Under the pieces are notes generated by a model. That model was not told the DNA's origin and did not search any database. It worked only from the letters and a program-made list of their open reading frames with translations. DNA of 64,000 bases. Origin: Gammaproteobacteria bacterium (GTDB lineage Bacteria > Pseudomonadota > Gammaproteobacteria > Steroidobacterales > JBCCMA01). Position 1 is the first letter of the stretch. Each line of letters begins with the position of its first letter. The stretch covers positions 49,713 to 113,712 of the forward strand of contig JBGCEL010000021.1 in assembly GCA_045106455.1 (NCBI GenBank), given 5' to 3'. Both the position numbers and the translations under genes were made by a program. This document shows, in pieces, positions 6,830 through 26,600 of this stretch.

Positions 6830-6910
6830 GCTGTGTTTCCTTTTGATACGTTAATTTCGAGGCAGGCATTGTAAACTGCGCGCACACTCTCGCAAAGGAT
6901 AGCTCACCCC

Positions 6911-8146
6911 GTGCACAAGCCCGCCAACAGTACCCCCTCTTCCTTCATCACCGCGTTTTTCAAATTGGAATCCGCTGGCGGCATTTTGCTGATGGGATCG
7001 GCGGCGCTGGCCATTGTGTTGGCCAATTCTCCGTTGCGGCAATACTACGATTTGTTGCTCTCAACGCCAGTCGCCGTGCAGGTGGGGGCGCTCGTCATCG
7101 ACAAGCCGCTGCTTTTGTGGATCAACGATGGCTTGATGGCCGTGTTCTTTTTCCTGGTGGGCCTCGAGCTAAAACGCGAGCTCACAGAGGGGGAGCTGTC
7201 TGACAAGCGCAACGTCATTTTGCCCGGTGTTGGAGCGATCGGCGGACTGGCGATCCCCGCGCTTATTTACGCGGCATTCAACTACAAAGACCCTGTCGCG
7301 ATTCAGGGCTGGGCGATTCCGGCGGCCACGGATATCGCGTTTGCGCTGGGCATCCTGACGCTGGTGGGCTCCCGTGTGCCGGTGTCAATTAAGGTATTTC
7401 TGACCTCGCTGGCCATCTTTGATGATTTGGCGGCGATCTCCATAGTGGCTATTTTCTATACCGCCAAAATTTCGTTCTCCGCATTGTTGTTTGCCGGCTG
7501 CTGCATTCCGGTGCTGGCCGTTTTGAATCGGCGCAACGTGACCGCCCACAGCCCCTATATCGTGATCGGTTTGATCATGTGGGTGGCCACCCTGAAGTCC
7601 GGCGTCCACGCGACGCTCGCCGGCGTCATCCTCGCGCTGTTTATTCCAATGCGCGATCGGCAGAACCCGGAGTATTCGCCGCTTAAATCACTGGAGCACG
7701 ATCTGCACACCATCGTGGCATTCTTTGTGTTGCCGGTGTTTGCTTTCGCCAATGCCGGTATCAATTTGTCCGGCGTGGGGTTCGACCAGCTCATGCACGG
7801 CGTACCGCTCGGCATTGCTCTGGGCCTCATTGTTGGCAAACAGGTCGGTATTTTTGGTGCTTGCGCACTGGTCATCAAACTCGGACTCACCTCGCTACCA
7901 CGCGGCGTGTCGTGGCTGAGTTTGTACGGTACGACGGCACTGTGTGGTGTCGGTTTCACAATGAGCCTGTTTATTGGCTCGCTGGCGTTTGAGGAAACCG
8001 GCGTGAACCTGCTGTTCGACGAACGCTTGGGGATCATCGTCGGCTCACTGGTCTCAGGTGTGCTTGGCTATGTCGTGTTGCGCGCAAGTCTGCCGGCGCA
8101 GCCGGATGAAGGTGAATCTGCGGCCGGCACGACCACTAGCAACTGA
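6911..8146 (+). CDS. nhaA: Na+/H+ antiporter NhaA
   Basis: [39 protein letters not shown]. Confidence 0.96.
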
Positions 8147-9077
8147 ATTCGTCGAGCGTCGCATCGCCCTCGATGATTGAGCCGGCGCGACCGTCGCGAA
8201 TTTGCTTGATGGCACTTTGCAGTCTGCCGCTGATTTTGCGCACGCCCGTGTTTTTGTGCGGATGAATTTCATCCGCCCAGTCCTCCGCCCCGGCCAACGT
8301 GCCACGCAAATCCACGTAGTGAAACAAGCGCTGGGATAGCGCCACTTGACGCAGCATTGCGTTAAATTCATCGATCAGAAGCTTAAGCGCGGGCTGGCGC
8401 GCTTCCTCGGGAATGTGGCGTGCATCGAAGGCCGGTTTGAGCCAGGGCCCGAGCTTAATCAGGCCACCCAGTACTTCCATTCTTCGTCCATCCGGGATCG
8501 GATAATCGTAGCCGTGAATCAGTACACGCGCTTTGGAAAGCCCAGAGGGCTTGAGCACGTCGCCACGAAAGCGCCCCAATCGTTCGGCCATCACGGACAG
8601 TCGCTCGCGATAGGCCGCACAATTGACGACACACCGGGCCACCGCCTGCGGCGTGGTGGCATCCGCGAGGCAGCGCGCCACGTCCGCATCTTCCGTGGGG
8701 TCGCGCAGCAATTGGCGCATTTCGACGCCAAGAATATCGTTGCCACCCGTGCTCAGCAGAACCAGATCGTAGCTCTGATTGCCGAGCCAGTCCGCAAACG
8801 TCGCCAACGCGAAATCGATATTGTCGTTCACGATCGTGTTGCGCAGCTCGGTTGTGGGATTGGCCACTGACAGCACATTAAACGGGCGCCGGCGATTTTC
8901 CGTATGGCGCTTCAGGCTATCAATCAGCGTCGGGCCCTCCCACCCCTCTACAGGTGTGGTGAACCACGAGTCCCCTTCCGCAAGTATGCGATATCGATCC
9001 GGGTTGCGTTTCTGAGCGCCGACAAATGCCTTCACTCGGCGGCGAATCGAAATGAGATTTGCGGTGCTGTTCGCCAT
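8136..9077 (-). CDS. SGNH/GDSL-family hydrolase
   Basis: AEGDSW block I, GGND block III, DEIHP block V. Confidence 0.82.
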
Positions 9078-9159
9078 GCTAATTGCCTTGGGTAATGCGC
9101 TGTGTTGCTAATAAATATAGCAGACACGAAACAAATTTCATGAAACGGAGAATAGCGAC

Positions 9160-9174
9160 CTAAGTATTTTCCGA
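9160..9174 (+). promoter_or_regulatory. Candidate FixJ-type binding site upstream of ccoN (CTAAGTATTTTCCGA)
   Basis: Identical 15-mer at 19537-19551; resembles the S. meliloti fixK FixJ site as I recall it (CTAAGTAGTTTCCC). Confidence 0.6.
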
Positions 9175-9265
9175 CGGTCCGTACGGCCATCCCGGATGGG
9201 TCTGCAAAGACTCGGTCCGCACAATAGCGCTCATCCTTATTCCAAGGTCATCGCAGGAGTCTTTC

Positions 9266-10708
9266 ATGGACCTCGCTAATAGTAATAGCGCTAATACCTA
9301 TAACGATCGTGTCGTTCGCCAGTTCGCCATCATGACGGTGGTCTGGGGGATCGTCGGTATGCTTGTTGGCGTTATTATCGCCGCTCAACTTTACTGGCCG
9401 ACGCTTGGGTTTGAATTGCCCTGGCTCAGCTACGGTCGATTGCGGCCACTGCACACCAACGCGGTGATCTTTGCCTTTGGCGGCAGCGCGCTGATTGGCA
9501 CGTCACTGCACGTCGTGCAGCGCACCTGTCATACACGAGTGTTTAGCGACAAGCTCGCGGCATTCGTATTCTGGGGCTGGCAAACGGTCATCGTGTTAGC
9601 CGCGATATCGCTGCCACTGGGTCTGACCCAAAGTAAGGAATACGCCGAACTGATCTGGCCCATCGATGTGTTGATCGCCGTGGTTTGGGTGGCTTACGCC
9701 GTGGTGTTTTTTGGCACCATCGTTAAACGGCAGGTCAAACACATCTACGTTGCGAACTGGTTTTACGGCGCCTTCGTTCTGACCATCGCTGTGCTGCACA
9801 TTGTCAATTCGCTGGCCATCCCAACCTCACTCACCCACTCCTATCCGGTTTATTCCGGCGTCATCGATGCGATGGTGCAGTGGTGGTACGGGCACAACGC
9901 GGTGGGCTTTTTCCTGACCGCCGGCTTCCTCGGCATGATGTATTACTACGTACCGAAGCAGGCTGAACGCCCTATTTATTCCTATCGTTTGTCGGTGGTG
10001 CACTTTTGGGCGCTGATTTCGATCTACATGTGGGCCGGCCCGCATCATCTGCACTACACCTCGGTACCCGATTGGGCCCAGTCACTCGGCATGGTGTTCT
10101 CGCTAATTCTGCTGGCACCAAGTTGGGGCGGCATGATCAACGGCATGATGACCTTGAGCGGCGCGTGGGACAAACTGCGCGACGATCCGGTGCTCAAATT
10201 TATGATCGTCTCGTTGAGCTTCTACGGCATGTCCACCTTCGAAGGTCCGATGATGTCGATCAAGTCGGTCAACGCACTCTCGCACTACACCGACTGGACC
10301 ATCGGTCACGTGCACTCCGGTGCACTTGGCTGGGTTGCGATGATGACCATTGGCTGTATCTACAGCCTGCTGCCGAAACTGTTCGGGCGAGAGCACATGT
10401 ATTCGACCAGCCTGATCAATACGCATTTTTGGGTGATGACCATCGGCATCGTGCTCTACACCGTTTCGATGTGGATCGCTGGGATCACTCAGGGCCTCAT
10501 GTGGCGCGCTACCAACGTGGACGGCACGCTGACCTATACCTTTATTGAATCGTTGGTGGCGACGTACCCCTACTATCTGATGCGTCTGATCGGCGGCATC
10601 ACGGTGCTCGCGGGCATGTTCATCATGGCCTACAACGTGTTCAAGACGGCCCAGAGCGGAGACGCCAAAGAGGTGCCGGTGATGGCACCAGCGGGAGCTA
10701 CGGCATGA
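9266..10708 (+). CDS. ccoN: cbb3-type cytochrome c oxidase subunit I
   Basis: [35 protein letters not shown]. Confidence 0.98.
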
Positions 10709-11367
10709 AACATGAAATCGTTGAAAAGAACATTGGCTTGATGGGTGTCCTGATTCTGGTCGTGATTAGTATCGCGGGTCTGGTTGAGATTGTGCCGCTG
10801 GTGTCCCAGGCGCAGATCATCGAGCCGGCAGAGGGTATCGAGCCGTATGGCGCGCTCGCATTAGCCGGACGCGACGTCTACGTACGCGAAGGTTGCTACC
10901 TGTGTCACTCACAGCAGATTCGACCTTTTCGTGCAGAAACCCGTCGCTACGGTCACTACTCTCTGGCCGGAGAATCGGTTTACGATCGACCGCATCAGTG
11001 GGGCTCGAAGCGCACCGGGCCGGATTTGGCTCGCGTGGGTGGTCGCTACAGTGACGAGTGGCAGCGCGTTCATCTGATCAATCCGCGTGACGTGGTCCCC
11101 GAATCGAACATGCCGGCCTTCCCGTGGCTGGCAAAGGCATCCGTTGACGCCGACGTCATCGCCGGTCGTATGCGCGCACTGCGCAAGCTTGGCGATCCCT
11201 ATACCGATGCGCAAATCGCGGGCGCGGCCGAGGCGATCGGCGATGCGACGGAGCTTGATGCTCTGATCGCCTATTTGCAGGGGCTTGGCACCAATATTAG
11301 CCGCAACGCCGCCCCGGCCGGCGCCGCCGCGTCCACTGACAGCAACATGAACACCGGAGGCCAGTAA
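10705..11367 (+). CDS. ccoO: cbb3-type cytochrome c oxidase subunit II
   Basis: EGCYLCHSQ heme motif, [20 protein letters not shown]. Confidence 0.97.
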
Positions 11368-11558
11368 TGGAATCACTGATCGATATTGGCCTGCTTCGCG
11401 GCCTTCTGACCGCTCTGGTCTTTACCGCGTTTATTGGCTTGGTGTTCTGGGCTTACTCGGGTCGCCGCGAGCAAGAATTTGGCGCTGCCGCGCAGTTGCC
11501 ACTGGAAGAAGATACCTACATCAACACGACGACGCCGAACAAGGGAGAGCCATCATGA
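11367..11558 (+). CDS. ccoQ: cbb3-type oxidase small subunit CcoQ
   Basis: 63 aa, one TM segment, FIGLVFWAY...AAQLPL; lies between ccoO and ccoP. Confidence 0.92.
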   Translation: MESLIDIGLLRGLLTALVFTAFIGLVFWAYSGRREQEFGAAAQLPLEEDTYINTTTPNKGEPS

Positions 11559-12472
11559 GCAGTAGTTGGCATTGGTTTATCGTCGTCTTTTCGGTAATCA
11601 ACATCATCGCCTGTCTGTGGCTCATTGTCTGGACGACACGTCAGGGTGATGAACAAAAAGGCGCGATGGAAACGTTGGACCACAGCTGGGACGGCGATCT
11701 GCAGGAGCGCAACAACCCATTGCCACGCTGGTGGTTGTTTCTGTTCGTCGGCACCATTATCTGGGGCTTTGGCTATCTTGCCTGGTACCCGGGTCTTGGC
11801 GCGTTTGCCGGTGCCGGGAAATGGTCATCCGTTGATCAATACCTCGAAGAGCGCCGTAAAATTGACGCGGTCTACGAGCAAAAATTTAGCCAACTGGCGA
11901 GCATGGACTACGCCACACTCGGCCAACACGCTGAGGGTATGGAAATCGCCGGTCGACTGTACGGCGCAAACTGCGCTACCTGTCACGGCTCGGACGCCCG
12001 CGGCGCACGTGGCTTTCCAAATCTGGCCGATTCGGACTGGCTGTGGGGCGGTGATGCAAACGCCATCACCACCACCATCACTAACGGCCGCGTCGGTGCC
12101 ATGCCGGCGTGGGGTGCAGCGCTGGGTGAAGATGGCGTCAAAGCCACCGTGGCGTACGTTCGTTCGTTGGCCGGCAAAGAGGCTGACACCACACGGCTTG
12201 AACAAGGAAAAGCGCACTACAACACGCTGTGCATCGCCTGCCATGGTCCGACGGGCAAAGGCATGCAGGTGCTCGGCGCGCCAAACCTGACCGATGATAT
12301 CTGGCTTTATGGCAGCGACACCGCCGCTCTGACCAAAACCATCGCAGAAGGCCGCGCAGGCAATATGCCGGCGCACACAAACCTCCTGACGGCGCACGAA
12401 ATCAAGCTACTGACGGCGTATGTGATGACGCTCAATGGTGCGAATTCGGGCAGCACCACGGGTGGACAGTAG
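11555..12472 (+). CDS. ccoP: cbb3-type cytochrome c oxidase subunit III (diheme)
   Basis: HSWDG...NNPLPRWW; two CxxCH motifs (CATCH, CIACH). Confidence 0.97.
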   Translation: MSSSWHWFIVVFSVINIIACLWLIVWTTRQGDEQKGAMETLDHSWDGDLQERNNPLPRWWLFLFVGTIIWGFGYLAWYPGLGAFAGAGKWSSVDQYLEERRKIDAVYEQKFSQLASMDYATLGQHAEGMEIAGRLYGANCATCHGSDARGARGFPNLADSDWLWGGDANAITTTITNGRVGAMPAWGAALGEDGVKATVAYVRSLAGKEADTTRLEQGKAHYNTLCIACHGPTGKGMQVLGAPNLTDDIWLYGSDTAALTKTIAEGRAGNMPAHTNLLTAHEIKLLTAYVMTLNGANSGSTTGGQ

Positions 12473-12778: not shown

Positions 12779-14155
12779 ATGAGCAACATCGCAAGCGCCG
12801 CCTCCCTGTATGAGAAGCAGGCGAAAATCTATCCACACGACGTCAAGGGCCCGTTTGCCACGCTACGCCGGGTTGCCGTGTACGTGCTGCTCGGCTTGTT
12901 CTACGGCGTCGTATGGCTGACCTGGGACAGCCGCCAGGCAGTGCTGTTTGACCTGCCTGCACGACAGTTTCATATTTTTGGTCTGACTCTGTGGCCGCAG
13001 GATTTTATCTATCTGGCGCTGCTGTTGCTGATTCTCGCCCTCATCCTGTTTTTTGTGACGGCACTGGCCGGGCGCCTATGGTGCGGCTACGCGTGTCCCC
13101 AAACGGTCTGGACCGAGGCATTCCTTCTGCTGGAGCGCTGGACAGAAGGACCACGCAATAAACGCATGAAACTGGATCGCGGGCCGATGACGCGTGAGAA
13201 GTTCATGCGCAAATCGGCCAAACAGTTTCTGTGGATCACGTTCTCGCTGTGGACCGGCCTCACCTTTGTCGGTTACTTCACGCCTATCCGCGGCTTGTTG
13301 GCCGACACGCTCACCTGGTCGATGCATCCATGGGCCGTGTTCTGGTTGTTTTTCTACGGCTTTGCGACCTACGGCAACGCCGGCTACCTGCGCGAGCAGG
13401 TGTGCAAATACATGTGTCCGTACGCGCGCTTCCAAAGCGCCATGTTTGACAAGAACACGCTGATTATCGCGTATGACGAAAACCGCGGTGAAGCACGCGG
13501 CGGGCGAAAAAAGAACGCGGAGCGCGCTGAGGGCGTTGGCGACTGCATCGACTGCACGCTGTGCGTTCAGGTGTGCCCTACCGGGATCGATATTCGGGAA
13601 GGGCTACAGTACGAATGCATCGCGTGCGCCGCGTGCATTGATGTCTGTAACGACGTCATGACCAAGATGGACTATCCCACCAACTTGATTCGTTACACCA
13701 CTGAAAATGCTGACAACGGTTCGCCCGCGAAGATCCTGCGACCACGCATCCTGTTGTACACCGCCCTGCTTTTAACCATCACAACGGGCATGCTGGTGTC
13801 ACTCACAACGCGCACGCCGCTGCGCATGGAAGTCATTCGTGATCGCAATGCGCTCTACCGGCTGGTCGCTGACGAAAAGGTAGAAAACGTCTATACCCTG
13901 CGCGTCATTAATATGACCGATGAAGCGCAAACCTATTCGCTGTCACTGCAGGGCGCTGATGGGTTTGACGCCGACGTACCCGCACTTACCGTGGCGGCTG
14001 CGCAAACGCAGGCGTTTCCCATTCGTTTGCGCACCCATCAAGCCAACGGCGTTGGCCGCATCCCGGTGACCGTCATATTGACCGCCGAGCGCGACGACAA
14101 TGTGCAAGTAGAACGCACCACCAACTTCTTTTTCCCCATGCCGAGTAACGAATGA
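12779..14155 (+). CDS. ccoG: Cytochrome c oxidase accessory protein CcoG (4Fe-4S)
   Basis: GRLWCGYACPQT, CKYMCPY, CIDCTLCVQVCP, CIACAACIDVC. Confidence 0.96.
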   Translation: MSNIASAASLYEKQAKIYPHDVKGPFATLRRVAVYVLLGLFYGVVWLTWDSRQAVLFDLPARQFHIFGLTLWPQDFIYLALLLLILALILFFVTALAGRLWCGYACPQTVWTEAFLLLERWTEGPRNKRMKLDRGPMTREKFMRKSAKQFLWITFSLWTGLTFVGYFTPIRGLLADTLTWSMHPWAVFWLFFYGFATYGNAGYLREQVCKYMCPYARFQSAMFDKNTLIIAYDENRGEARGGRKKNAERAEGVGDCIDCTLCVQVCPTGIDIREGLQYECIACAACIDVCNDVMTKMDYPTNLIRYTTENADNGSPAKILRPRILLYTALLLTITTGMLVSLTTRTPLRMEVIRDRNALYRLVADEKVENVYTLRVINMTDEAQTYSLSLQGADGFDADVPALTVAAAQTQAFPIRLRTHQANGVGRIPVTVILTAERDDNVQVERTTNFFFPMPSNE

Positions 14156-14355
14156 AAACTGATCAACCCACTCCCTGGTTTCGCGAACCGACCATGATGA
14201 TCGTTGCGGGCATTTTGGGATTTACTATAATCTCCGGCATCGCGATGCTGACGGTCGCAAGCAACGGCCACGACCAGCTCATCATGAGCGATCAGGATTA
14301 TCGCGAGTGGCGCGACGACATGCGCGCCACCACAGCTTTGCCAGACGATGACTAA
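14152..14355 (+). CDS. ccoH: Short FixH/CcoH-like protein
   Basis: PWFREP N-terminal motif plus one TM segment; overlaps ccoG and ccoI; only 67 aa. Confidence 0.7.
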   Translation: MKTDQPTPWFREPTMMIVAGILGFTIISGIAMLTVASNGHDQLIMSDQDYREWRDDMRATTALPDDD

Positions 14356-16849
14356 ACCCTGCTTCCATTGCCATGAGGATGTGCCACAGGGCCTTGCCCT
14401 GACGGTGCACATCAATGGTGAGGAGCAACCGGTCTGTTGTGCCGGCTGCCAAGCGGTGGCCACGCTCATTATCAGCGGCGGCAACGCTGCGTACTATCGC
14501 TTTCGCGAGGGGCCGGGGCAGCGACTTACGCCACAAGATCTTGAATCGCTGTCGCATTGGAAGGCGTTTGATTCGCAGTATCCAAGCGACGACGATGGCC
14601 TGTGCCAGATTCATATATTTATTGAAGGCCTGCACTGTGGTGCGTGCGGCTGGCTAATAGAAACGCGCCTCGGTGCTCTTGAGGGCGTCGTACACATCAA
14701 TATGGATGTACAAAGCTCGGCCGCCACGCTGAGCTGGTCACCCGCCTCTATCTTGCTGAGCGATGCACTCAGTGAACTGGTGCGGCTGGGCTATCGCCCG
14801 CATCCACTCGATGGTAACAGTGCCCGCGAAATACACACACAGGAGCGTAACGGTCTGCTGCGCCGGCTGGCGGTCGGTGGCCTGGGCATGATGCAGGTAA
14901 TGATGTTTGCTGTGGCAACCTATGCTGGCGCCCTCGAGGGCATTGATCCGGCCATTGAAAAACTCCTGTTGGGGGTGTCGATGTTGGTGGCGACACCCGT
15001 TGTTTTTTACGCAGGTTCGCCTTTTCTGGTCGGGGCGCTGCGTGCGCTTCTGAGTCGCCGTTTGAGTATGGATGTGCCAGTGGCGCTGGCGCTCATACTT
15101 GCCTACGGGGCGAGCTGCCTGCACTTTTTCAGCGACGGCGGTACAACGTACTTTGAATCCGTCAGCATGTTTGTGTTCTTCCTGCTGTGCGCACGTTTTC
15201 TCGCCATGATGGTCAGACATCGATCGCTGGACTCGCAGCTCGCATTGGCGCCAATGCTGCCCGACGTCGCCCTGAAATTCGTCGACCAGAGCAATGAACA
15301 AACGCAGCCCATCCCACGCACCGCATTGCGACCCGGCGATCGAATCCGGGTCCGAGCCGGTGATGCCGTGGCCGCCGATGGCATCGTTGTACAAGGCAGC
15401 GCGCGCATCGACGAATCCTTGCTGTCCGGCGAGTCTGAACCTGTACTGAGGACGACCGGCGATCAGGTTTTGGCAGCGAGCCTGAATCTGGACGGCTCGC
15501 TGGTGGTTCAGGTCACGGCCAGCGATGACAGCAGTCGCGTCGCAGGCATTGCCTCAACACTTGCCACGGCGCGCGATAAACGCCCGATCAGCACTCGCCT
15601 CACCGAGCGCCTGGCGGCGCGTTTCGTACTCGCGCTTCTCATTGTGGCGACGCTCGTCGGCGCCGTATGGTGGTGGATTGATCCGAGCCGCGCGCTGGGT
15701 ATTGTTCTGGCGGTTCTCGTGGTGACCTGCCCCTGCGCTCTGTCGCTGGCCATTCCCACCGCTCTGTCCGCGGCGGCGATGAAGCTTGCGTCCAGCGGAC
15801 TACTCGTTAATCGGTTGGATGCAGTGGAGACGCTCGTCAAAGTGAATCAGGCCCTCTTCGATAAGACCGGCACGCTGACGCGCGGCACGCCGGTGATCGA
15901 GACGGTAATGACCAATACTGAGCACCCGCTCGCCGTTGACGAAGACGAACTGCTTGGATTAATCGCAAGTCTGGAAGCGCACAGCACGCACCCGCTAGCC
16001 GAGGCGTTTCGTGACATTACGCCGGCCGGTCCGGCAAACGCTGTGCAAAATATTGCCGGCCGCGGACTGCGCGGTATGGTTGGCCTGCGTACTTTACGCG
16101 CGGGTCAGGCTGATTTTGTCGGTGTCACCAACAGCCATCCGCTTGCACTGCGCGCCAATATTCTGATCAGTGATCAGGACGGCTTCTTAGGCGGCGTTGT
16201 TTTGGGTGATCAGTGGCGCGACGATGCGCGTGCCACCGTTACCCAACTGCGTGAAATGAACATACGCAGCACCATTGCCAGTGGCGACCGCCACGAGCGC
16301 GTGATGGAGGCCGTCACCGCGCTTGGGCTGCACACCGGCTTTGGCCAATGCCTGCCTGAAGACAAGCTGGCGCACGTGCGACGCATGCAAGAACGCGGCG
16401 ATGTGGTGCTGGCCATCGGCGATGGCGTCAACGACGCGACGCTGCTGGCCGGTGCCGATGTGTCGGTAGCGGTAGCAAGCGGTGCACAGCTCGCGCAAAG
16501 TGGCGCCGATATTGTCATGACAAGTTCGGGCTTAAACGCTCTCGCCCAACTTCCACTGGTCGCGCAACAATGGCAGCGCACGGTGCGTCAAAATCTCATC
16601 TGGGCCATCGGCTACAACGTCATCGCCGTGCCGCTTGCCGCCGCGGGGCTCGTGGGTCCCGGTGTGGCCGCACTAGGCATGTCGTTGAGTTCGCTGTTTG
16701 TGGTGCTGAACTCGGCACGTCTGGCAAGATCCGGCGAGCGCTCCGTGCGACCACAGCCGTTACCGAACACGACTCCGACCCCGGCCCGGACGCCTGATAT
16801 TAAGCAGCTCACCACCGATAAAGTTCACGCCGTAAGAGACGCCGCATGA
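14348..16849 (+). CDS. ccoI: Cu-transporting P1B-type ATPase CcoI/FixI
   Basis: CFHC...CCAGC, CGAC, SGES, CPC, DKTGT, GDGVND. Confidence 0.95.
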   Translation: MTKPCFHCHEDVPQGLALTVHINGEEQPVCCAGCQAVATLIISGGNAAYYRFREGPGQRLTPQDLESLSHWKAFDSQYPSDDDGLCQIHIFIEGLHCGACGWLIETRLGALEGVVHINMDVQSSAATLSWSPASILLSDALSELVRLGYRPHPLDGNSAREIHTQERNGLLRRLAVGGLGMMQVMMFAVATYAGALEGIDPAIEKLLLGVSMLVATPVVFYAGSPFLVGALRALLSRRLSMDVPVALALILAYGASCLHFFSDGGTTYFESVSMFVFFLLCARFLAMMVRHRSLDSQLALAPMLPDVALKFVDQSNEQTQPIPRTALRPGDRIRVRAGDAVAADGIVVQGSARIDESLLSGESEPVLRTTGDQVLAASLNLDGSLVVQVTASDDSSRVAGIASTLATARDKRPISTRLTERLAARFVLALLIVATLVGAVWWWIDPSRALGIVLAVLVVTCPCALSLAIPTALSAAAMKLASSGLLVNRLDAVETLVKVNQALFDKTGTLTRGTPVIETVMTNTEHPLAVDEDELLGLIASLEAHSTHPLAEAFRDITPAGPANAVQNIAGRGLRGMVGLRTLRAGQADFVGVTNSHPLALRANILISDQDGFLGGVVLGDQWRDDARATVTQLREMNIRSTIASGDRHERVMEAVTALGLHTGFGQCLPEDKLAHVRRMQERGDVVLAIGDGVNDATLLAGADVSVAVASGAQLAQSGADIVMTSSGLNALAQLPLVAQQWQRTVRQNLIWAIGYNVIAVPLAAAGLVGPGVAALGMSLSSLFVVLNSARLARSGERSVRPQPLPNTTPTPARTPDIKQLTTDKVHAVRDAA

Positions 16850-17004
16850 AAATTTTGTTTGTTCTAATACCGCTCAGTTTGTCGCTGTTCGCGTTGGCGG
16901 TCTGGGGTTTTTTCTGGATGGTCCGCCATCGTCAGTTTGATGATCTGGATTCTGCCGGATGGCGCGTTCTGCTCGATGATCCGAAAGAACCCCCGCCCTC
17001 ATGA
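16846..17004 (+). CDS. ccoS: cbb3 oxidase maturation protein CcoS (52 aa, absent from the ORF track)
   Basis: Hand translation MKILFVLIPLSLSLFALAVWGFFWMVRHRQFDDLDSAGWRVLLDDPKEPPPS*; QFDDL motif; ATGA overlaps at both ends. Confidence 0.93.
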   Translation: MKILFVLIPLSLSLFALAVWGFFWMVRHRQFDDLDSAGWRVLLDDPKEPPPS

Positions 17005-17720
17005 TGATGCAGACCATGACATTCTCGGCCGCCCTGCTCGCAGGCTTTATGGCCAGCGGTCATTGCCTTGGCATGTGCGGGCCCATGACAGCGCTTGCCG
17101 CCGCGCCGGGCCACACAGCGACCGGCATGCGAGCGCTTGCTTACAATTCCGGGCGACTAGTCAGCTATTCCATCATTGGCGCGGTGTTTGGCTACCTTGG
17201 CTTCGCACTGGGTGATGCGGCCGGGGTCGCACGCTGGTCGGTAATCCTGCGCATTGCTCTGGGCGTGGTGATGTTGCTGATCGGCCTGCAGCTGCTGCGG
17301 CGACGCGGCGGCGCCTCCGTCTTCGAACGACTCGGCATGCGCATCTGGGCCCGCCTCGCGCCGCTCACACGCCACCTGAACCCGGCGGGACGCACTGTCG
17401 ACCTGTTTGCCATGGGACTTCTGTGGGGCTGGCTACCCTGCGGGATGGTCTACAGCATGCTCGCCGTGGCCGCGGTATCCGGCAGCGCCGTCCACGGTGC
17501 CAGCGTCATGCTGGCCTTCGGCCTCGGGACGTTGCCGGCGCTGCTGGGTCTGTCTCTGGCCGGCACACGACTGCACGTGCTGCGCAGTCTCCATTCACGT
17601 CGCGCGCTTGGCTTGGGTTTGATTCTGGCCGGCCTGTGGATGGCGGCCATGCCGCTGTACTCAACGCTCGGTGCTGCGGAGGACGGCGCACATGCTCACC
17701 ATCACATGCATCATCACTAA
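17001..17720 (+). CDS. Sulfite exporter TauE/SafE-like (DsbD_2) cco-associated membrane protein with His-rich tail
   Basis: HCLGMCG, YNSGRLVSY, WGWLPCGMVY, FGLGT; C-terminal HAHHHMHHH. Confidence 0.9.
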   Translation: MMMQTMTFSAALLAGFMASGHCLGMCGPMTALAAAPGHTATGMRALAYNSGRLVSYSIIGAVFGYLGFALGDAAGVARWSVILRIALGVVMLLIGLQLLRRRGGASVFERLGMRIWARLAPLTRHLNPAGRTVDLFAMGLLWGWLPCGMVYSMLAVAAVSGSAVHGASVMLAFGLGTLPALLGLSLAGTRLHVLRSLHSRRALGLGLILAGLWMAAMPLYSTLGAAEDGAHAHHHMHHH

Positions 17721-17723
17721 TCG

Positions 17724-18356
17724 TTAATCTGGAAAGTAGTCCGCGCGATGCAGCTGGCGAATCAGTTGCGCCAGCGACGTCACCTGCATTTTTTCCATCA
17801 CATGGGCACGGTGAATCTCAACCGTACGTTGAGAGATGTTCAGATCCATCGCCACCACTTTGTTGGCTTTACCGTCGGCCACCATGGCCAGCACATCGCG
17901 CTCGCGCGGTGTCAGTGTGTCCAAACGTGCGCGGACTTGTGCCACGGACGCCGATTTTTCCAACTGCGCACGATTGCCGTCCAGCGCCTGATGGATACGA
18001 TCCAACAGGTCTTGATCGCGAAAGGGCTTGGCCAGAAAATCCGTGGCGCCGCGTTTTAGGGCCTCAACGGCCATTTCAATATCGCCGTGACCGGAGATGA
18101 ATATGATCTTGAGCTGTGTGCAGCCGCGTTCCGCCAAAATCTCCTGCAGCTCCAAACCACTCATTGACGGCATGCGCACGTCCAGCACCAACACACCGTG
18201 AGTATTGTCGTAGGCCGCCAGAAAATCCGCGGCCGATTCGAAACTTCTTGCCTCAAGGCCAACCGAGTCCATCAAAAACCCGAGGCTGTCGCGAACGGCT
18301 GTATCGTCATCAACGATATATATTCGTTGCTCGCTTACTCCGGCGCTATTTTTCAT
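17724..18356 (-). CDS. fixJ: FixJ-type response regulator (REC + LuxR HTH)
   Basis: IVDDD, LDVRMP, SGHGD, KPF, LTPRERDVL...SQRTVEIHRAHVMEKM; alternative GTG start at 18368. Confidence 0.9.
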   Translation of the reverse strand: MKNSAGVSEQRIYIVDDDTAVRDSLGFLMDSVGLEARSFESAADFLAAYDNTHGVLVLDVRMPSMSGLELQEILAERGCTQLKIIFISGHGDIEMAVEALKRGATDFLAKPFRDQDLLDRIHQALDGNRAQLEKSASVAQVRARLDTLTPRERDVLAMVADGKANKVVAMDLNISQRTVEIHRAHVMEKMQVTSLAQLIRQLHRADYFPD

Positions 18357-19515
18357 TTCCACCCGCACTATCCTCCGCAGCAGGTAACGTAAACCGAAAA
18401 CGTGAACCGCCGCCAGGGTTAGGTTCGCAATAAAGCTGTCCGCCGTGACGCTGCACTATCGTACTGCAAATCGACAAACCGATGCCCATTCCACTGGGCT
18501 TGGATGTCTCAAACGGCAGAAAGATTGAGTCCACCTTCTCCAGCGGCACGCCCTCACCGTGATCGATCACCACGATTTCTACCCCTTCGGCATGCGCATG
18601 ACTCTCGATGCGAATGCCCTTCTCAGCTTGCGACCGCAAAATCATCGCCTCGAGACCATTACGGACCAAATTGATCACCACCTGCTGAATTTGCACTGGG
18701 TCAATTTTCACAGCCGGCAGGTCGTCACTCAGAGACAGTTTGATGGGCGCGTCACTGTCGCGCGCCTCGGTCTCCATCAGCACCAACAGGTCGCGTAACA
18801 CATGGTTGATATTGCGCAGGGCGCGCGGCGTCTCGGTCTGCTGCGCCAGATCGCGCATGCGTTGCACCACGTCGCCTGCCCGCCTTGCTTGTTGCGCGAT
18901 GCTGCTCAGCGCATACGCGATCTTTTCAACTTGAGGTGTGTCCTGCGCCGTAAAGCGTTGCGCGGCATCGGCGTACGTCGCGATGGCCGCCAAAGGCTGA
19001 TTGATCTCATGCGCAATTCCGGCCGTCATCTCACCCAGCGTCGACACGCGATGCACGTGTTCGAGTGAGCGTTCCAATTGACGCCCGTGGGCACGTTCGC
19101 TTTTCAATTCGTTTTCAAGGCTGGTGCGGCGGCGCAGATCGCGCATGATGCCCACAAACAACGAGTGATCCCCCATGGGCGCCTCACCCACGGACAAATC
19201 GATGGGGAACACGGTGCCGTCGCTGTGGCGGGCCTTAACCTCGCGCCCGATTCCGATGATGCGTGCTTGCCCGGTTTCAAGGTAACGATCCATGTAGCCG
19301 TCGTGCTCGCCGTGATAGGGCTCGGGCATCAGAACCGTGACGTTCTTCCCTATGACGAATTCGGTCGAGAACCCGAACATTTCTTGCGCCCCGGCACTAA
19401 ACGACAAAATTCTGGCCTTTTCGTCGATCACGACGATGCCGTCCACGGCCGCACCCAGCAAAGCCTCCAGAAGCTTGTCACTGGCGTTCTCTATGGTCTC
19501 CTGACGGTCGATCAT
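18346..19515 (-). CDS. fixL: Soluble heme-PAS O2-sensor histidine kinase, FixL-type
   Basis: PAS segment LMPEPYHGEHDGYMDRY...IIGIGR (proximal His and distal Arg of FixL), AHEINQP H-box, GMGIGL; no TM segments. Confidence 0.88.
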   Translation of the reverse strand: MIDRQETIENASDKLLEALLGAAVDGIVVIDEKARILSFSAGAQEMFGFSTEFVIGKNVTVLMPEPYHGEHDGYMDRYLETGQARIIGIGREVKARHSDGTVFPIDLSVGEAPMGDHSLFVGIMRDLRRRTSLENELKSERAHGRQLERSLEHVHRVSTLGEMTAGIAHEINQPLAAIATYADAAQRFTAQDTPQVEKIAYALSSIAQQARRAGDVVQRMRDLAQQTETPRALRNINHVLRDLLVLMETEARDSDAPIKLSLSDDLPAVKIDPVQIQQVVINLVRNGLEAMILRSQAEKGIRIESHAHAEGVEIVVIDHGEGVPLEKVDSIFLPFETSKPSGMGIGLSICSTIVQRHGGQLYCEPNPGGGSRFRFTLPAAEDSAGGNEK

Positions 19516-19536: not shown

Positions 19537-19551
19537 CTAAGTATTTTCCGA
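19537..19551 (+). promoter_or_regulatory. Candidate FixJ-type binding site in the fixL/usp divergent region (CTAAGTATTTTCCGA)
   Basis: Exact copy of the 15-mer at 9160-9174, same orientation and similar distance relative to the downstream gene. Confidence 0.6.
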
Positions 19552-19647
19552 GGGTTGGCAGCGGATACCCCGCGCTGTGCCAATCACACCCACAGGGTAC
19601 CTTTTGCAGATGAAAACGCCAATTCCGAGTCGACGCGGGGAACCGGT

Positions 19648-20568
19648 TTGAAGACCTATGTGATCGACATTGCCGACCCGACAGAAGATGAGCCCGCTTC
19701 GATTGCTGCCGCACACGCGCTGCTCGAGTCAGGCGATCGGGTGGTGCTGTTTCATTACATCTTTCATCAGCGATTGGTGGAGGAGCAGGGAAACCCTGCT
19801 CACCGGTTAGTGGCCGAGGCGCGCGACCTGCTGATGGCAAGCCGCACAGAGCAACTCGCCGCGCTCGCCGGGCAGTTCGCAAACCAGGACGTCCGATGCG
19901 AGGTTGTGTGGACGGATAATGGCTGGCAATCGCTGGTCAATTTCGTGCGCGACCAAAAGGCCGACATGCTGATTGCGCAGAGCGAACGACCGAGTCGCTG
20001 GCGTCCATTGACACGTGCCAACGACGATTGGCAGCTCATCCGCCACTGCCCGGTGCCGTTGCTACTTGCGCGCCCCGAATGCGGACATCAGTACAAACAA
20101 ATTTTGGCCGCCGTCGATCCCCTGCATGTGGATGACAAGCCTGCCGAACTCGACTATCGAATTCTCGACCACGCATCCGAAATATCAGCGCGTCACAACG
20201 CTTCACTTTGCGTATTGAACGTGGCGGTACCGGTAACGGTGAGCTCAAGCATCGCTGCTGCACCCATCGCTGAGGCTCAGGTGGTCACCAAAGAGATTGT
20301 GACGGCCCATCGCGAACGTCTGGCCACGATCCTTGAAGAGTTGGGTATTGATATCGCTCAAATTTGCGTGATTCCGGGGCTGCCTGCTCAGGAAATCGTC
20401 AAGCACGCCCAGGATCAGAATGCCGATTTGGTTGTCATGGGCGCCGTGTCGCGTTCTGCACTGCGCAACCTTCTGATTGGGAATACGGCTGAAAAAGTGC
20501 TGGACCAGATTGCGGCGGACACGCTAATAATCAAGCCGTTCGTGGACGACAGCACCACCGCACAATAA
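19648..20568 (+). CDS. Tandem-domain universal stress protein, UspE-like
   Basis: DWQLIRHCPVPLLL, ILAAVDP, DLVVMGAVSRS...IGNTAEKVL; start placed at TTG 19648 (uncertain). Confidence 0.88.
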   Translation: MKTYVIDIADPTEDEPASIAAAHALLESGDRVVLFHYIFHQRLVEEQGNPAHRLVAEARDLLMASRTEQLAALAGQFANQDVRCEVVWTDNGWQSLVNFVRDQKADMLIAQSERPSRWRPLTRANDDWQLIRHCPVPLLLARPECGHQYKQILAAVDPLHVDDKPAELDYRILDHASEISARHNASLCVLNVAVPVTVSSSIAAAPIAEAQVVTKEIVTAHRERLATILEELGIDIAQICVIPGLPAQEIVKHAQDQNADLVVMGAVSRSALRNLLIGNTAEKVLDQIAADTLIIKPFVDDSTTAQ

Positions 20569-20617: not shown

Positions 20618-23600
20618 TCATGGGTTGGGACACATCAACTGAATGTTCACATCTCCGTGACCGCTGTGCGCGATACAGTCGCCGTAATAATGGCAATCAT
20701 TGGGCTGGTCCACCGTCTCGAAATCAAACCAGCCTGAGCCACCGAAGATCGACTGCTCATTGGGATGGGCGTTGGCGCCGGTGCCTACCTGAAACGACGC
20801 GCCAGTACGCTCGATGTTGAGCAGCGCTCCGGTGTTCCAGGCCTCACCCGTGAGCGTGCCGCTCCAATTCGGGTAGTACACCCAGTCGGCCGGGTCCGCG
20901 CCTTGCGGGTTATACGGACTACCCGGTGGTGGCACGTCGGTACGTCCACTGAGCATCAGGTCCACATTGAAACGATAGTTTGGCTCGTCCTGTTTGAACG
21001 CCATCCCGGTCAGGCGTGCCGTGCCGTCGCCCAACGTCACAAACTGGGCACCGTCGTCGAGATCGTAGCGATCGAGTATGCCGTCGTTGTTGAAGTTCGG
21101 CAGAAACAACGCTTGATACTGCGTTTCGTTCGCGACACAGGCCTGACCGCCGTCATCGGCGCAATCAATGCGCACATTGAAGTCGCCTTTGCCCGTGTGC
21201 TCAACGCAGTCCCGCCCCAGATTCAGGCAGCGATCGCCCTGACGCTCAGTAACGTAGTCGAACCAGCCCGAACCGCCGAACACGTTCACGTCATCCTGCG
21301 TATCGTTGGCACCGGTGCCCACCTGGAACGACGGTCCGCGTCGTGTGACGCTCAAGCTCGCACCCGCGTAGTCGTCCAGACCCAACAGCGTACCGCTCCA
21401 GTTCGGGTAGTACACCCAATCACTGATATCGGCGCCGAAGTTATTTTTCGGACTACCGGGCGGTGGCGTCGTGGTACGACCTGACAGCATCAGGTCGACG
21501 TCAAACGATTCATCCGCATCGGTACGCTTGCGCGCCACGCCGGTCAGGCGCGCCGTGCCATCCGCGTTGCGTGTGAAGCGCGCGCCGGGCAGGAAGTCGA
21601 AGCGATCCGCGCCGCCGTTGCCATCGAGATTCTGGAACCACAGTCCATGGTTGGCAGCGGACGTCACCACACAATCGTCGCTGTCGCATTTCTTATCAAT
21701 GCGCACGTTGTCGATCATGAATTTGTCCCAGCGACCGCCAAACTTGTTGGTTACCACAAACTTGATCACCGTCTCACCTGAGATATACGGCGAGATGTCG
21801 TACGTCTCAAAGCCACTCGCCGCACCGTGATAGCCACTGAACACGTCAAGCACCGTAAACGACTGTCCGCCGTTGTCGGAGATCTTGAGTGTGACCTCAT
21901 CATCGGGATCCACTTCATTGGAGGTGGTCCAGTCGAACATCAGCATCGCCGCTGGATATCCGGACAGATCGACCTGACGACGAATGCTGGGCTTTTGATG
22001 ACTATTGGGATAGTCGGTCAGAATGAGCACACCGTCGGCCACGCGGATCGCACCATCGCTGGCACCGCCGCCCTGAGGATCGTGCTCGAGCCACGGACCG
22101 GCCCAATCCATCGAGCCATCGTTATTGTCGTAACGCACCCGATTGAATTGATCCGCCACATCGCCCGCCACGCAGACCGGCGCCGTGCACTTCTTATCGA
22201 TGCTGACGTTATCGACAAAGAACTCGTCGTGCGAACCGCCAAACAGATTCGTGATGCGGAAACGGATAATGGTGTTGGCCGAGATGTACGGCGTCAGATC
22301 AAACATCTCCGAAGCGCCGACCACCTGACCCTGCACGCTTTCAAACATGGCAAGCGTGGTAAACGTGATGCCGCCATCGGTGGACACTTCCACTACCGCT
22401 TCATCGTTCTTGGTGGCCGCCGACGTCGTTGACCAGTCGAACATCAACATCGCCGCCTCAAACCCGGTCAGATCAACGCCGCGCGCAATGGACGGAGCTT
22501 GATGGCTGTCAGGCCGATCATTGAGTTGCAGACGACCGTCCACAATCGACACCGAACCACTGCTGGCGCCACCGCCCTGCGGATCGTTCTCAACCCATGG
22601 ACCGTTCCAATTCATCGAACCGTCGTTGTTGTCGTACGACACTTGATTAAAGTGATCGGCCACGTTGCCATCGACGCAGGACGCTTCGCCAAAGTAATGG
22701 CTGGCGTCGCTGTCACTCACGGGATTGCCAATAGGCACACCGCCATCGATTGGCTGTCCGGTCACGCTACCGATGTTGGCATACTGACCGGCGATCGCCG
22801 TGCCGCTGCCGGTGCAGACAAAGCTCGCACCCGGTGCCAGCGTGTCAGCAGGACAGGTCACGGCAACGCCCTGATTGTCAGTGACCACAATGCCGGTGAG
22901 GGTCAGCTCACCGGTGTTGCTGACGATGTACTCCCAGTTGACCGCGTCGCCTGCCGTTAGGATGGGGCCCGTTGGCGTATCGGCATCTTCACCGTTGGTC
23001 AGCTTCTCGATGTCCACTTCACCCTTGAGGCGAATCAAACCCGCATCGATGGTGTTGTTGGACTCACCGGGCTGCAGCACGATGGCAGGTGTAATGCCAC
23101 TGGTCGGATCGGGGTCCGAATCCAGTGCATCATCACCGGCATCTGGCGTGGTAAACGGCAGACCCGGTACGGCGCCAAACTGCACGAAGTAGGTCTCGCG
23201 CGAATCCAGATCCGTAAACAGGTAGTTGCCATTGGCGTCGGTGGTCGTGGTCGCCACGATCAGATCCGGCGCGCCGTCACCGTCGGTATCAATCCACAGG
23301 TTTACCGTAACGCCCGGCTGACCTGGCTCGTTAGGATCCTGCAGACCGTCGCGATCGCTGTCGACAAACACTGTGTCACCGATGCTTGCGGTCGGCAAAG
23401 GTAGACCGAGGTAATGCGACGGATCGGTGTCACCCACCGGATCGCCGATCGGATTGCCGTTGTCATCCACCGGCTGACCGCTGGCACTGCCCACGTTCAT
23501 ATACTGGCCGACAACCGCAACGCCGCTACCGGTGCAAACAAGCGTTGCCCCCGGCGCCAGCGTGTCGGCAGGACAATTCACGGCAACGCCCTGATTATCG

Positions 23601-26600
23601 CTCACCGTAATGCCGCTGACGGTCACGTTGCCGGTGTTGCTCACCGTGTACTGCCAGTTCACAGGCTGACCTTCCACAATTTGTGGTCCGGTTGGTGTAT
23701 CAGCATCTTCGCCGTTCGTGGTCTTCTCGATAGTCAGACCGCCGCCGGCACCGAAGTAATGACTGGGATCGCTGCCCGACACGGGATCGCCCACAGGCGT
23801 ACCACCGTCGCTTGGCTGACCGGTCACACTGCCGATGTTCGCGTACTGACCGGCAACGGCCGTACCGCTACCGCTGCAAGTAAAGCTTGCACCGGCGTCG
23901 AGCGTCGTGCCCGGGCAGGTCACCGCGACGCCCTGATCATCCACCACCACAATATTGCTGAGCGTCAACTCACCGGTGTTGGTGATGACATACGACCACG
24001 TGATCGGAGCGCCCACAGGCACGACCGGTCCGGTGGGCGTATCGGCATCTTCACCGTTGGTCAGTTTCTCAATGCTCACGCCTGAGTTCAGCGTTATGAC
24101 ACCGGCGTCGATGGTCAGATTGCTCTGACCCGGGTTCAACGTGATCGGTCCCGTGATACCGGTAGCCGGATCAGCGTCGCTGTCGGTGCTGTCGTCGCCC
24201 ACGTTTGGCGTGGTAAAGGGCTGCCCCGGCACCGCACCAAACTGCACGAAGTAGGTCAAGCGCGGATCGAGATCGCTAAACAGATAGTTGCCGTTCGCAT
24301 CGGTCATCACGGTGGCGATGATCGTGTCGGGCACGCCGTCGTTGTTGTCGTCGGTCCACAGATTTACCGTGACGCCCGGCAGACCCGGTTCGCCCGCGTC
24401 CTGCATACCGTCACGATCGGTGTCGACAAACACGGTGTCGCCTATGCTTGCCGTGGCGATGGCCACACCCAGATAGTGCGATGGATCACTGTCGCCAATC
24501 GGCGCACCAATCGGGTTGCCGTTGTCATCCACCGGCTGGCCCGTCGCCGACCCAATATTCACATACTGACCCACCGTCGCGATGCCCTCGCCCGTGCAGG
24601 TAAGCGTGGCGCCCGGCGCCAACGTATCGGTCGGGCAACTCACGCTCACACCCTGATCATCCGTGACCGTAATGTTGTTGACCGTGACGTTGCCGTTGTT
24701 GGTCACCACGTAGGTCCACATCACCGGCTGGTCTTCGGTGATTTCCGGTCCGGTTGGTGTGTCGGCATCTTCGCCGTTGGTGAGCTTCTCGATGGTAAGA
24801 CCCGCGCCCGCACCAAAGTAGTGGCTGGGATCCGAGTCAATGCGCGGATCACCAAACGGCGTACCGTTGTCGGTAGGCTGCGCACTCACTGAACCCAAGT
24901 TGCTGTACTGACCGGCCGTGGCAACGCCGCTGCCGGTACAGGTCATCGATGCACCCACGTCCAGCGTGGTCATCGGACAACTGACGGTCACGCCCTGATC
25001 ATCCGTGACCACAATATCAATCAGCGGGAACTCACCGGGGTTGCGCACCACGTAGGTCCAGTTCACCGTCTCACCGACGGTCAGAATTGGGCCCGTTGGC
25101 ACATCGGCATCCACACCGTTGGTGAATTTCTGAATCGTCACGTCGGGTTTGAGTTTCAAGATACCCGCATCAATCGTGAGATTGGTCTCACCCGGTGCCA
25201 CTGTAATAGGACCCGTGATGCCACTCAGCGGATCGACATCCGAATCGGCGGCATCGTCACCCACGTTGGGTTGTGTAAACGGTTCACCCGGAACCGGCAC
25301 CACCTGCACAAAGTAGGTCAGGCGCGGATCGAGATCCGTAAACAAATAGTTGCCGTTACCGTCGGTCGTCGTGGTCGCAATGATGCGATCGGGCGTACCG
25401 TCGCCGTCGTCATCGACCCACAAGTTCACGATGCGATCGGGGACGCCCCGTTCGCCGGGATCTTGCACGCCGTCACGATCCTCGTCCACGAACACCGTGT
25501 CACCAATGGCCGCGGTGGCAATAGGTGTACCCAAATAGTGCGACGGATCGGTGTCACCCACCGGATCGCCAATCGGGTTGCCGTTGTCATCCACCGGCTG
25601 ACCGGTGGCGCTACCGATGTTCGCGTATTGACCGACCGTTGCAATGCCCTCACCCGTGCAGGTGAAGCTCGCGCCGGGGGCAAGTGAGGCGGCGGGGCAG
25701 CTGACCGCTACACCCTGATCGTCGGTCACGACAATGTTGTTGACCGTGACGTTGCCTGTGTTGGTCACAACGTAAGTCCAGCTCACCGGATCGTCTTCGG
25801 TAATTTCAGGTCCGGTTGGCGTATCAGCATCCTGACCATTGGTCGATTTTTCGATCGTCAGGCCACCGCCTGCACCGAAGTAATGGCTCGGATCGTCGCC
25901 CGTGATCGGATCGCCGATGGGCGTGCCGCCATCCGACGGCTGACCGGTAATGGTGCCGATGTTGCTGTACTGACCAGCCGTTGCAACGCCAGTACCGGTG
26001 CAGACCAACGTCTCACCCGGCGCCAACGTATCGCCAGGGCAGCTCACGGCCACGCCTTCGCTGTCAGTGACCACGATGTTTACCAAATCCAGCTCGCCGG
26101 TGTTGGTCACCGTGTACGTCCAGGTGATCGGATCACCTACGCTCACGATCGGACCCGTGGGCGTGTCGGCGTCTTCACCGTTGGTCGTCTTCTCGATGCT
26201 GGCGCCGGAGGTGAGCACAATCACGCCGGCATCGATCGTCAGATTCGTCTCACCTGGCGTGAGTGCGATCGGCGGACTGATGCCGGTGGCTGGGTCAACG
26301 TCGCTGTCGGCTGAATCATCACCCACGTTTGGCAACGTGAACGGCTGACCGGGAACCGGTACGACCTGCACAAAGTAATTCAAACGCGGATCGAGATCCG
26401 TGAACAGATAGTTGCCGTTCGCATCGGTAATGAGTGTGGCGATGATGGTATCGGGCGTGCCGTCACCGTCATCGTCGGTCCACAGGTTCACCGTTACACC
26501 GGGCAGACCGGGTTCACCCGGGTCCTGAATGCCGTCGCGGTCTTCATCGACAAACACGGTGTCGCCAATCGCCGCCGTGGCAATCGGCGTACCCAGATAA

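Follow-up and report, generated by a model that had tools for sequence, protein, structure and literature searches.

In rhizobia and in Caulobacter, the sensor kinase FixL and its response regulator FixJ control the genes of the cbb3 oxidase (ccoN/fixN) via a further regulator, FixK (PMC4999443, PMC13327599), and fixK is given, in the available part of PMC4999443, as the only known conserved FixJ target in the Alphaproteobacteria. A gammaproteobacterial stretch of 64,000 nt (hereafter the window; assembly GCA_045106455.1, contig JBGCEL010000021.1, positions 49,713 to 113,712) raises the question of whether this intermediate tier is always interposed, i.e., whether FixJ may act on the oxidase genes themselves. 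In the window, an identical 15-mer, CTAAGTATTTTCCGA, stands upstream of ccoN and again upstream of a gene for a tandem universal stress protein (usp), and fixL and fixJ lie between the two copies. The two 15-mers are predicted FixJ boxes, and the best reading of the locus, which we consider probable, is that phosphorylated FixJ (FixJ~P) would directly activate both the cbb3 operon and usp. This proposal was made in a preliminary description of the locus, and it gains support from the match to published sites, the identity of FixL and FixJ, the conservation of the box and the presence of boxes before Fnr-family genes elsewhere.

Two identical boxes on either side of fixLJ

The exact 15-mer occurs on the plus strand at positions 9160–9174 and 19537–19551 and nowhere else in the window, both copies being intergenic and in the same orientation. 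As the preliminary description had reported, each copy is followed by nGGT, which reads CGGT at ccoN and GGGT at usp, and the stretch common to both places therefore comes to 19 nt, of which 18 are identical. A duplicated promoter or a mobile repeat was ruled out because the identity between the two places stops after these 19 nt. No exact copy of the 15-mer appeared in 100 dinucleotide-preserving shuffles of the window, and the corresponding test with up to three mismatches is uninformative (at least two matches in 12 of the 100 shuffles). The source genome, labelled G000 among the genomes and loci compared here (G and L labels), is a 4,579,007-base assembly of 179 contigs that is 93% complete. 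The genome-wide scan for the 15-mer that had been suggested earlier returned these two sites only, whereas six matches with up to two mismatches were found in the whole assembly versus seven for a backwards control pattern, showing that the 15-mer is without a wider or dispersed repeat family.

The distances given in the preliminary description were all recounted as correct, with 91 nt between the box and the ccoN ATG (9266), 96 nt between the box and the usp TTG (19648), and 21 nt between the latter box and the ATG of fixL, the first base of which lies at 19515 on the minus strand. The TTG is taken as the usp start because TTG or GTG is found at the aligned place in relatives. On its other side, the ccoN box lies 83 nt from the start of a divergent GDSL-like gene (8136–9077, minus strand; a weak Pfam Lipase_GDSL_2 match below the cut-off), which is a possible further target.

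Conservation and promoter geometry

The preliminary description had also proposed to look for the motif in relatives that carry fixLJ, and this comparison showed that it is conserved on both sides of the module. The arrangement of usp, the oppositely oriented fixL-fixJ and the dsbD2-ccoI-G-P-O-N cluster recurs in five further loci, with FixJ identities from 81 to 62%. A gapless alignment starting from the box places TAnGTAnTTnCCG before usp in nine of nine genomes (G000, G002, G004, L025–L028, G006 and G009; L024 is identical to G004 in the region compared), and the same pattern stands before ccoN in eight (G000, G002, L025, L027, L028, L030, G013 and G032). In G006, the box has a divergent fixL (43% identical) on one side and a UspE-like gene on the other, while in G013, G032 and L030 it stands after fixJ and before ccoN, and a divergent gene is absent; in G013 and G032 fixJ directly precedes ccoN. 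The box varies at its third position (A, G or C), its flanks mostly differ across relatives, and about 17 orthologous sites together give the consensus yTAvGTAdTTwCCGAr.

A −10-like hexamer starts 59–62 nt from the first T of the box in all nine usp promoters and in seven of the eight ccoN promoters. The usp-side hexamers follow the form TAnnnT/A (TACCTT, TAAGCT, TAAAGT, TAGAAT, TATAAA and TAAATA), and those on the ccoN side, at offsets of 59–61 nt, the form xACAAT or xAxAAT (CACAAT, GACAAT, CAAAAT and CAGAAT). By this conserved offset from the box, the putative −10 hexamers of the window are CACAAT for ccoN (9220–9225, plus strand) and TACCTT for usp (19598–19603, plus strand). If these hexamers are indeed −10 elements, the box would span about −71 to −58, a predicted position that is close to the rhizobial one, not identical to it, and transcription would begin near 9232 for ccoN and near 19610 for usp.

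Several features were observed beside these promoters. The ccoN ATG of L027 and L028 follows 7 nt after the end of the hexamer, and a Shine–Dalgarno sequence is missing, so that ccoN appears to be leaderless in these two loci; an in-frame ATG within the hexamer is an alternative ccoN start. On the usp side of the window, a 13-codon frame (19610–19651, plus strand) begins where usp transcription is predicted to start and ends in a TGA that overlaps the usp TTG. This frame is open also in G002 (with a GTG start) and in G004 (with an internal ATG), and it is not evident in L025–L028. Upstream of the ccoN box, at 9113–9137, lies an A/T-rich block, ACACGAAACAAATTTCATGAAAC, with the palindrome TTTCATGAAA, which is nearly unchanged in G002 amid differing surroundings and is not seen in L025; this block could serve a different regulator as its site or act as the promoter for the divergent GDSL-like gene.

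A second block follows 21 nt downstream of the ccoN box (9181–9196, plus strand; CGGCCATCCCGGATGG region), conserved in G002 and L025 and related to a block found in L027 and L028. The preliminary description had called it a degenerate second copy of the box. The sequence is indeed present at 9181–9195, but it is no recognisable box, scoring −10.8 bits against the box matrix. Among six offsets tried, the +21/+22 register is the best one in five of six ccoN promoters and five of seven usp promoters, and the block in this register is conserved within each gene's promoters; its matrix scores are negative in 12 of 13 cases, and an independent FixJ box at +21/+22 was rejected on account of these scores. 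The block may instead be a weak second FixJ contact of the kind found at fixK, or the −35 region.

Agreement with published FixJ sites

The FixJ site of the S. meliloti fixK promoter is the 16-nt sequence TAAGTAATTTCCCTTA, and two classes of FixJ sites, GTAGTTTCCC and GTAMGTAG, were obtained by systematic evolution of ligands by exponential enrichment (SELEX), as given in the available part of PMC4999443, which quotes Kurashima-Ito 2005, Ferrieres and Kahn 2002 (SELEX) and Galinier 1994 (footprints). According to the same source, the TAAG element of this promoter lies at about −64 and the FixJ footprints cover −69 to −44 and −57 to −31. The R. palustris fixK promoter carries GTACGTAG, as stated in PMC13327599, also available in part. 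Compared with these sequences, TAAGTATTTTCC of the window (9161–9172) agrees at 11 of 12 positions with the initial 12 nt of the S. meliloti fixK site, and the window agrees with the SELEX class GTAGTTTCCC at 8 of 10 positions. The ccoN site of G002, GTAGTTTCCG, agrees with the latter class at 9 of 10 positions, and the box of L027 takes the form TACGTAG, as in the R. palustris sequence. The sequence that the preliminary description had remembered as the S. meliloti fixK site turned out to be a blend of two published sequences, and the lead itself is sound.

FixL, FixJ and the genes of the module

By their Pfam architecture, fixL and fixJ encode a two-component pair, i.e., a histidine kinase core on one side and a receiver with a GerE-type helix-turn-helix on the other. 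FixL (18346–19515, minus strand; HisKA and HATPase_c) is a short soluble form with a single haem-PAS domain and no visible membrane part. This PAS domain aligns to the FixL haem domains 1d06 (E 1e-30) and 1dp6, and its histidine in the motif geHdgy falls at the column of the conserved histidine of both structures, which we take to be the proximal haem ligand. FixJ (17724–18368, minus strand; Response_reg and GerE, the latter a GerE/LuxR helix-turn-helix) has B. japonicum FixJ (5xso) as its best solved match. When its C-terminal domain is taken alone, S. meliloti FixJC (1x3u) comes first among the solved structures, and the recognition helix RTVEIHRAHVM aligns to RTVEVHRANVM. At E ≤ 1e-40, it is the only FixJ-like match in G000. 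Among 502 FixJ-positive loci, the nearest named relatives are metagenome-assembled genomes (MAGs) of Gammaproteobacteria, with Steroidobacteraceae and Nevskiales MAGs further out. The organism is uncultured, and the loci with the predicted direct wiring come exclusively from MAGs.

On the plus strand, downstream of the first box, lies a cbb3 operon with structural genes and assembly genes according to Pfam: ccoN for oxidase subunit I (9266–10708; COX1, E 6e-119), ccoO (10705–11367; FixO, E 4e-80), ccoP (11555–12472; FixP_N and Cytochrome_CBB3), ccoG/fixG (12779–14155; Fer4_18 and FixG_C) and ccoI/fixI for a P-type ATPase (14348–16849; E1-E2_ATPase, HMA and ATPase-cat_bd). The last gene of the cluster encodes a DsbD_2-family membrane protein (17001–17720, plus strand; DsbD_2, E 2e-47) and keeps this place in L024–L028. 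Downstream of the second box, usp (19648–20568, plus strand, TTG start) encodes a tandem universal stress protein with two Pfam Usp stretches, which is UspE-like, its NCBIfam UspE score of 130 bits being below the cut-off. Directly after usp, a single open frame of 4123 aa occupies 20618–32989 on the minus strand.

Occurrence of the box in relatives and in more distant loci

How far the box reaches was followed with a matrix; a strict pattern scan of 80 FixJ loci overlooked the TACGTA and TTACC variants. An order-wide survey of 41 genomes found a FixJ-like gene (E ≤ 1e-40) in 31 and ccoN in 24, and yielded 22 usable ccoN upstream regions. A sense box of at least 11 bits is present in five of these 22, namely in G000, G002, G013, G032 and, weakly (11.5 bits), G011, compared with a highest score of 10.6 bits for the reversed-sequence control over the ccoN upstream regions; among the five, G000 and G002 are members of the matrix training set. 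A scan of the same 41 genomes with the pattern TAVGTADTTWCCGAR added matches before usp genes in G006 and G009, before an FtrB-like Crp/Fnr gene in G033, before an open reading frame (ORF) of 181 aa and unknown function in G013 and before an unclassified long ORF in G028.

In 71 more distant FixJ loci (1.25 Mb), the matrix scan gave 13 matches of at least 13 bits versus nine in the reversed control, and the follow-up covered the three above 21 bits, which score 22.9, 22.7 and 21.2 bits. The first of these, in L046 (Ningiella sp. W23), stands before an Fnr-family gene, and the second, in L038 (a Nevskiales MAG), stands before an Fnr-family gene directly after fixJ, the product of which carries a CxxCxxxxxC motif. 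Both Fnr-family proteins score below the NCBIfam Fnr cut-off of 228 bits (164 and 159 bits). Boxes in this position link the element with FixJ without recourse to the sites at ccoN and usp. Thus, both wirings, with a predicted box before an Fnr/FixK gene or before ccoN and usp, exist among the Gammaproteobacteria.

Some further motifs were noted in the course of these scans. In L031 and L032, where cco adjoins fixLJ, no box was found by the matrix; about 150 nt before ccoN, these two loci, both from MAGs, carry GTACGTAC or GTACGTAG, i.e., the second published class of FixJ sites, followed by TAAGTGTACCTACG. L034 (9183, minus strand) and L035 (4321, minus strand) have box-like motifs scoring 17.2 and 16.9 bits; each is bordered on one side by a FixL-like kinase gene and on the other by a divergent ORF, roughly 275 aa long, that is nitroreductase-like by eye. 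In the window itself, a box-like sequence of 11.2 bits, ATACGTTAATTTCGAGG, is located at 6846–6862 (plus strand), between a cyclophilin gene and nhaA and 65 nt before the nhaA start, with a score in the range expected by chance.

Other oxygen regulators

The sequence TTGA-N6-TCAA occurs three times in the window, with no occurrence in the ccoN or usp intergenic region, and TTGAT-N4-ATCAA with up to two mismatches is absent from the ccoN (9078–9265) and usp intergenic regions as well, in agreement with the preliminary description, which had seen no FNR/FixK box in either. The best match to the latter pattern is a single three-mismatch sequence before ccoN; there is none before usp. Among relatives, the same pattern with up to two mismatches is present in six of the 22 ccoN regions, compared with two of 22 in the reversed control, and in none of G000, G002, G013 and G032. 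Only G026 (L128), one of 22 relatives, has perfect TTGAT-N4-ATCAA boxes, two of them, 181 and 125 nt before ccoN.

The regulators themselves were also searched for. No FNR protein was found in the 93% complete assembly of G000, the two real members of the Crp family being CRP and a FixK-like protein without the cysteines (Cys-less; contig C151). The best family of the latter is FixK, with 100 bits against a cut-off of 300, and it possesses an E--SR-type recognition helix. Upstream of its gene, the only FixK-like one of G000, no FixJ box was found (best 0.3 bits), so that this gene is not visibly under FixLJ control, and the protein is 23% identical to the box-preceded Crp/Fnr protein of G033. 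A search of G000 for ActR/PrrA/RegA gave no protein at the cut-off (best 77 of 250 bits). The preliminary description had named a requirement for an FNR/FixK or RegA protein encoded elsewhere as one of the outcomes that would overturn direct control; with respect to FNR and, at the cut-off, RegA, the search was negative, but one Cys-less FixK-like protein is encoded.

Proposed mechanism

A mechanism can start from what was observed, namely the sequence and how it is conserved, the families to which the proteins belong and the lack of an FNR box. The 11-kb block between the boxes, with ccoNOP-ccoG-ccoI-dsbD2, fixJ and fixL on the other strand, and usp, could be viewed as a self-contained low-oxygen module. 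Loss of O2 from the haem of the soluble single-PAS FixL would lead the kinase to phosphorylate FixJ. FixJ~P would then bind TAAGTATTTTCCGA, with the box centred at about −65 relative to each transcription start if the hexamer is the −10 element, and would directly activate two promoters of sigma-70 type, one serving the cbb3 oxidase and assembly genes, the other the tandem usp. In this way, the ccoN and usp promoters would do without the FixK/FNR tier through which the cascade runs in rhizobia and Caulobacter.

The usp box is located a short way upstream of the ribosome-binding site of fixL, and this implies that fixLJ transcripts start at or beyond the box. FixJ~P may therefore also modulate fixLJ, in either direction. 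Autoregulation of fixLJ by the usp box is a possibility suggested by position only (14–27 nt from the fixL start in relatives). A bolder version of the proposal, which we regard as possible and put forward tentatively, would hold that the FixK tier has been dropped altogether, that the block is a portable 11-kb hypoxia module in which the genome's only two FixJ boxes drive both outputs directly, that the usp box is the fixLJ autoregulatory site, and that the box has moved from a fixK-type gene, where it still stands in Nevskiales and Ningiella, to the effector promoters.

Weighing the evidence

A number of observations weigh against direct control. The matrix for the genome scan, built from the sites of 11 relatives with the G000 sites left out, scores 22.1 (usp), 21.8, 17.7 and 17.0 (ccoN) bits in the genome itself, but 24.8, 19.1 and 18.1 bits in the reversed-genome control, so that it is unspecific when used alone. 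With control scores of up to 24.8 bits, no further FixJ regulon members in the G000 genome are callable by the matrix scan. The second-best genome match, C123:8157 (L111 2658–2674; 21.8 bits), located between a GGDEF gene and an unknown ORF of 262 aa, was set aside as probably a −10 element rather than a FixJ box, because it contains TATAAT, lies only 37 nt from an ATG and differs in geometry. The pattern TAVGTADTTWCCGAR gave 11 matches over the 41 genomes versus four for the control, and four of the 11 were previously known sites; of the new ones, the match in G035 lies within a ferredoxin-like coding frame and is probably not regulatory, and that in G015 has no gene start nearby. The box is found in five of 22 ccoN regions, whereas a FixJ-like gene is present in 31 of 41 genomes, suggesting that the direct wiring is lineage-specific. 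Neither protein reaches its NCBIfam equivalog cut-off (FixJ 226 bits versus 255, FixL 317 bits versus 850); nevertheless, FixJ and FixL are the top-scoring families for their proteins, and the FixL model was built for the longer rhizobial form. The Cys-less FixK-like regulator is present in G000, and at 93% completeness an FNR or RegA gene could be unassembled. Finally, we infer binding, activation, expression, transcription starts and oxygen response from sequence, and the same is true of the −10 elements and hence of the position of the box. The case for the box is built on exact identity, position, conservation and linkage to fixLJ, and not on the matrix.

These observations leave room for other explanations. 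In the classical two-step scheme, a Crp/Fnr regulator, either the FixK-like protein on C151 or an FNR from the unassembled part, would activate ccoN via an unrecognised site, and the FixJ box would only fine-tune. The FixK-like gene with its E--SR-type recognition helix, the incompleteness of the genome, the control of ccoN/fixN by FixK in rhizobia and Caulobacter as described in the available parts of PMC4999443 and PMC13327599, and the two perfect FNR boxes before ccoN in G026 all speak for this scheme. However, neither intergenic region contains TTGAT-N4-ATCAA with up to two mismatches, the strong-box ccoN regions (G000, G002, G013 and G032) are all without an FNR-like box, and the FixK-like gene is without a FixJ box (0.3 bits), its product sharing 23% identity with the box-preceded Crp/Fnr protein of G033, and we consider the scheme unlikely. 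FixJ could also bind the boxes with another main role, i.e., repression, autoregulation of fixLJ or control of the divergent GDSL-like gene. The usp box lies just beyond the fixL ribosome-binding site, 14–27 nt from the fixL ATG, in seven of seven close relatives, 83 nt separate the ccoN box from the start of the divergent gene, and FixJ represses nifH in R. palustris according to the available part of PMC13327599. Against such a role, which appears improbable, orientation and the spacing of about 60 nt to the −10-like hexamer are constant on both the ccoN and the usp side, G002 is the one relative in which the divergent gene beside the ccoN box is seen to be conserved, and G013, G032 and L030 have no divergent gene there.

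The box might also belong to another response regulator of the LuxR/NarL family, since a first look yields 71 response regulator candidates in the genome, FixJ stays under its equivalog cut-off and TtrR is its second-best family. This is improbable in view of the single FixJ match at E ≤ 1e-40, the presence of boxes beside fixLJ in every locus examined and the agreement of the motif with sites defined for S. meliloti FixJ in the available part of PMC4999443. Coincidence, or a remnant without function, is a very improbable account of the two copies: equally high matrix scores do arise in the reversed-genome control, but an exact copy was seen in 0 of 100 shuffles, orthologous boxes with diverged flanks exist in up to nine genomes, and the end of the identity after 19 nt excludes a mobile repeat. 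Direct activation of the cbb3 operon and usp by FixJ~P is thus the reading that we retain, and it is supported as far as an analysis of sequence can carry it.

Significance and comparison with known systems

Direct control would extend the FixJ box to the Gammaproteobacteria and would point to a one-step circuit in which an oxygen sensor directly controls a high-affinity oxidase and a stress protein. The existence of both wirings within related genomes makes the system a tractable case of regulatory rewiring, and fixLJ and the two promoters would make up a compact, FixK-free, oxygen-responsive expression module, a candidate for trial in a heterologous host. No report of direct FixJ control of ccoNOQP was found in the literature searched, the coverage of which does not extend to subscription journals.

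The closest parallel at the level of DNA is the S. meliloti fixK site, as far as it is described in the available part of PMC4999443. Both share the core TAAGTA-N-TTTCC, and their regulators have nearly the same helix-turn-helix. The S. meliloti box is placed upstream of the −35 region of a sigma-70-type promoter, with footprints that also overlap this region, and has a weaker second contact downstream; a comparable placement and a candidate second contact are predicted for the window. In contrast to that site, the predicted targets here are ccoN and usp rather than fixK or nifA, the box runs on as CCGA(G/A) instead of CCCTTA, its predicted span is −71 to −58 versus a rhizobial TAAG at about −64, and the host is a gammaproteobacterium. 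At the level of the circuit, the FixLJ–FixK cascade of rhizobia and Caulobacter has the same sensor, regulator and output (the cbb3 oxidase at low oxygen), with fixLJ adjoining fix/cco genes. The difference is that its middle tier is not visible here, there being neither a box-preceded FixK-like gene nor a FixK box at ccoN.

Other systems resemble the proposed circuit in part. In the hFixL–FxkR system, FxkR sites have been predicted computationally before the Rhizobium cco operon, as stated in the available part of PMC4999443; this is likewise a response regulator below a FixL-type sensor that is predicted to act directly on a cco operon, but both the regulator and the site (GTTACA-N4-GTTACA) are different. 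The DosR (DevR) regulator of M. tuberculosis, which acts below DosS/DosT, is of the NarL/FixJ family (PMC3029386, available in part). As in the mechanism proposed here, a regulator of this family takes its signal from haem sensor kinases and turns on hypoxia genes directly, and several universal stress proteins belong to the DosR regulon. The DosS/DosT–DosR system differs in its sensor domain, which is GAF and not PAS, and in its DNA site, phylum and regulon, and no membership is claimed. The locus described here is thus predicted to connect a known regulator and a known site in a new way, rather than to represent an element of a new kind.

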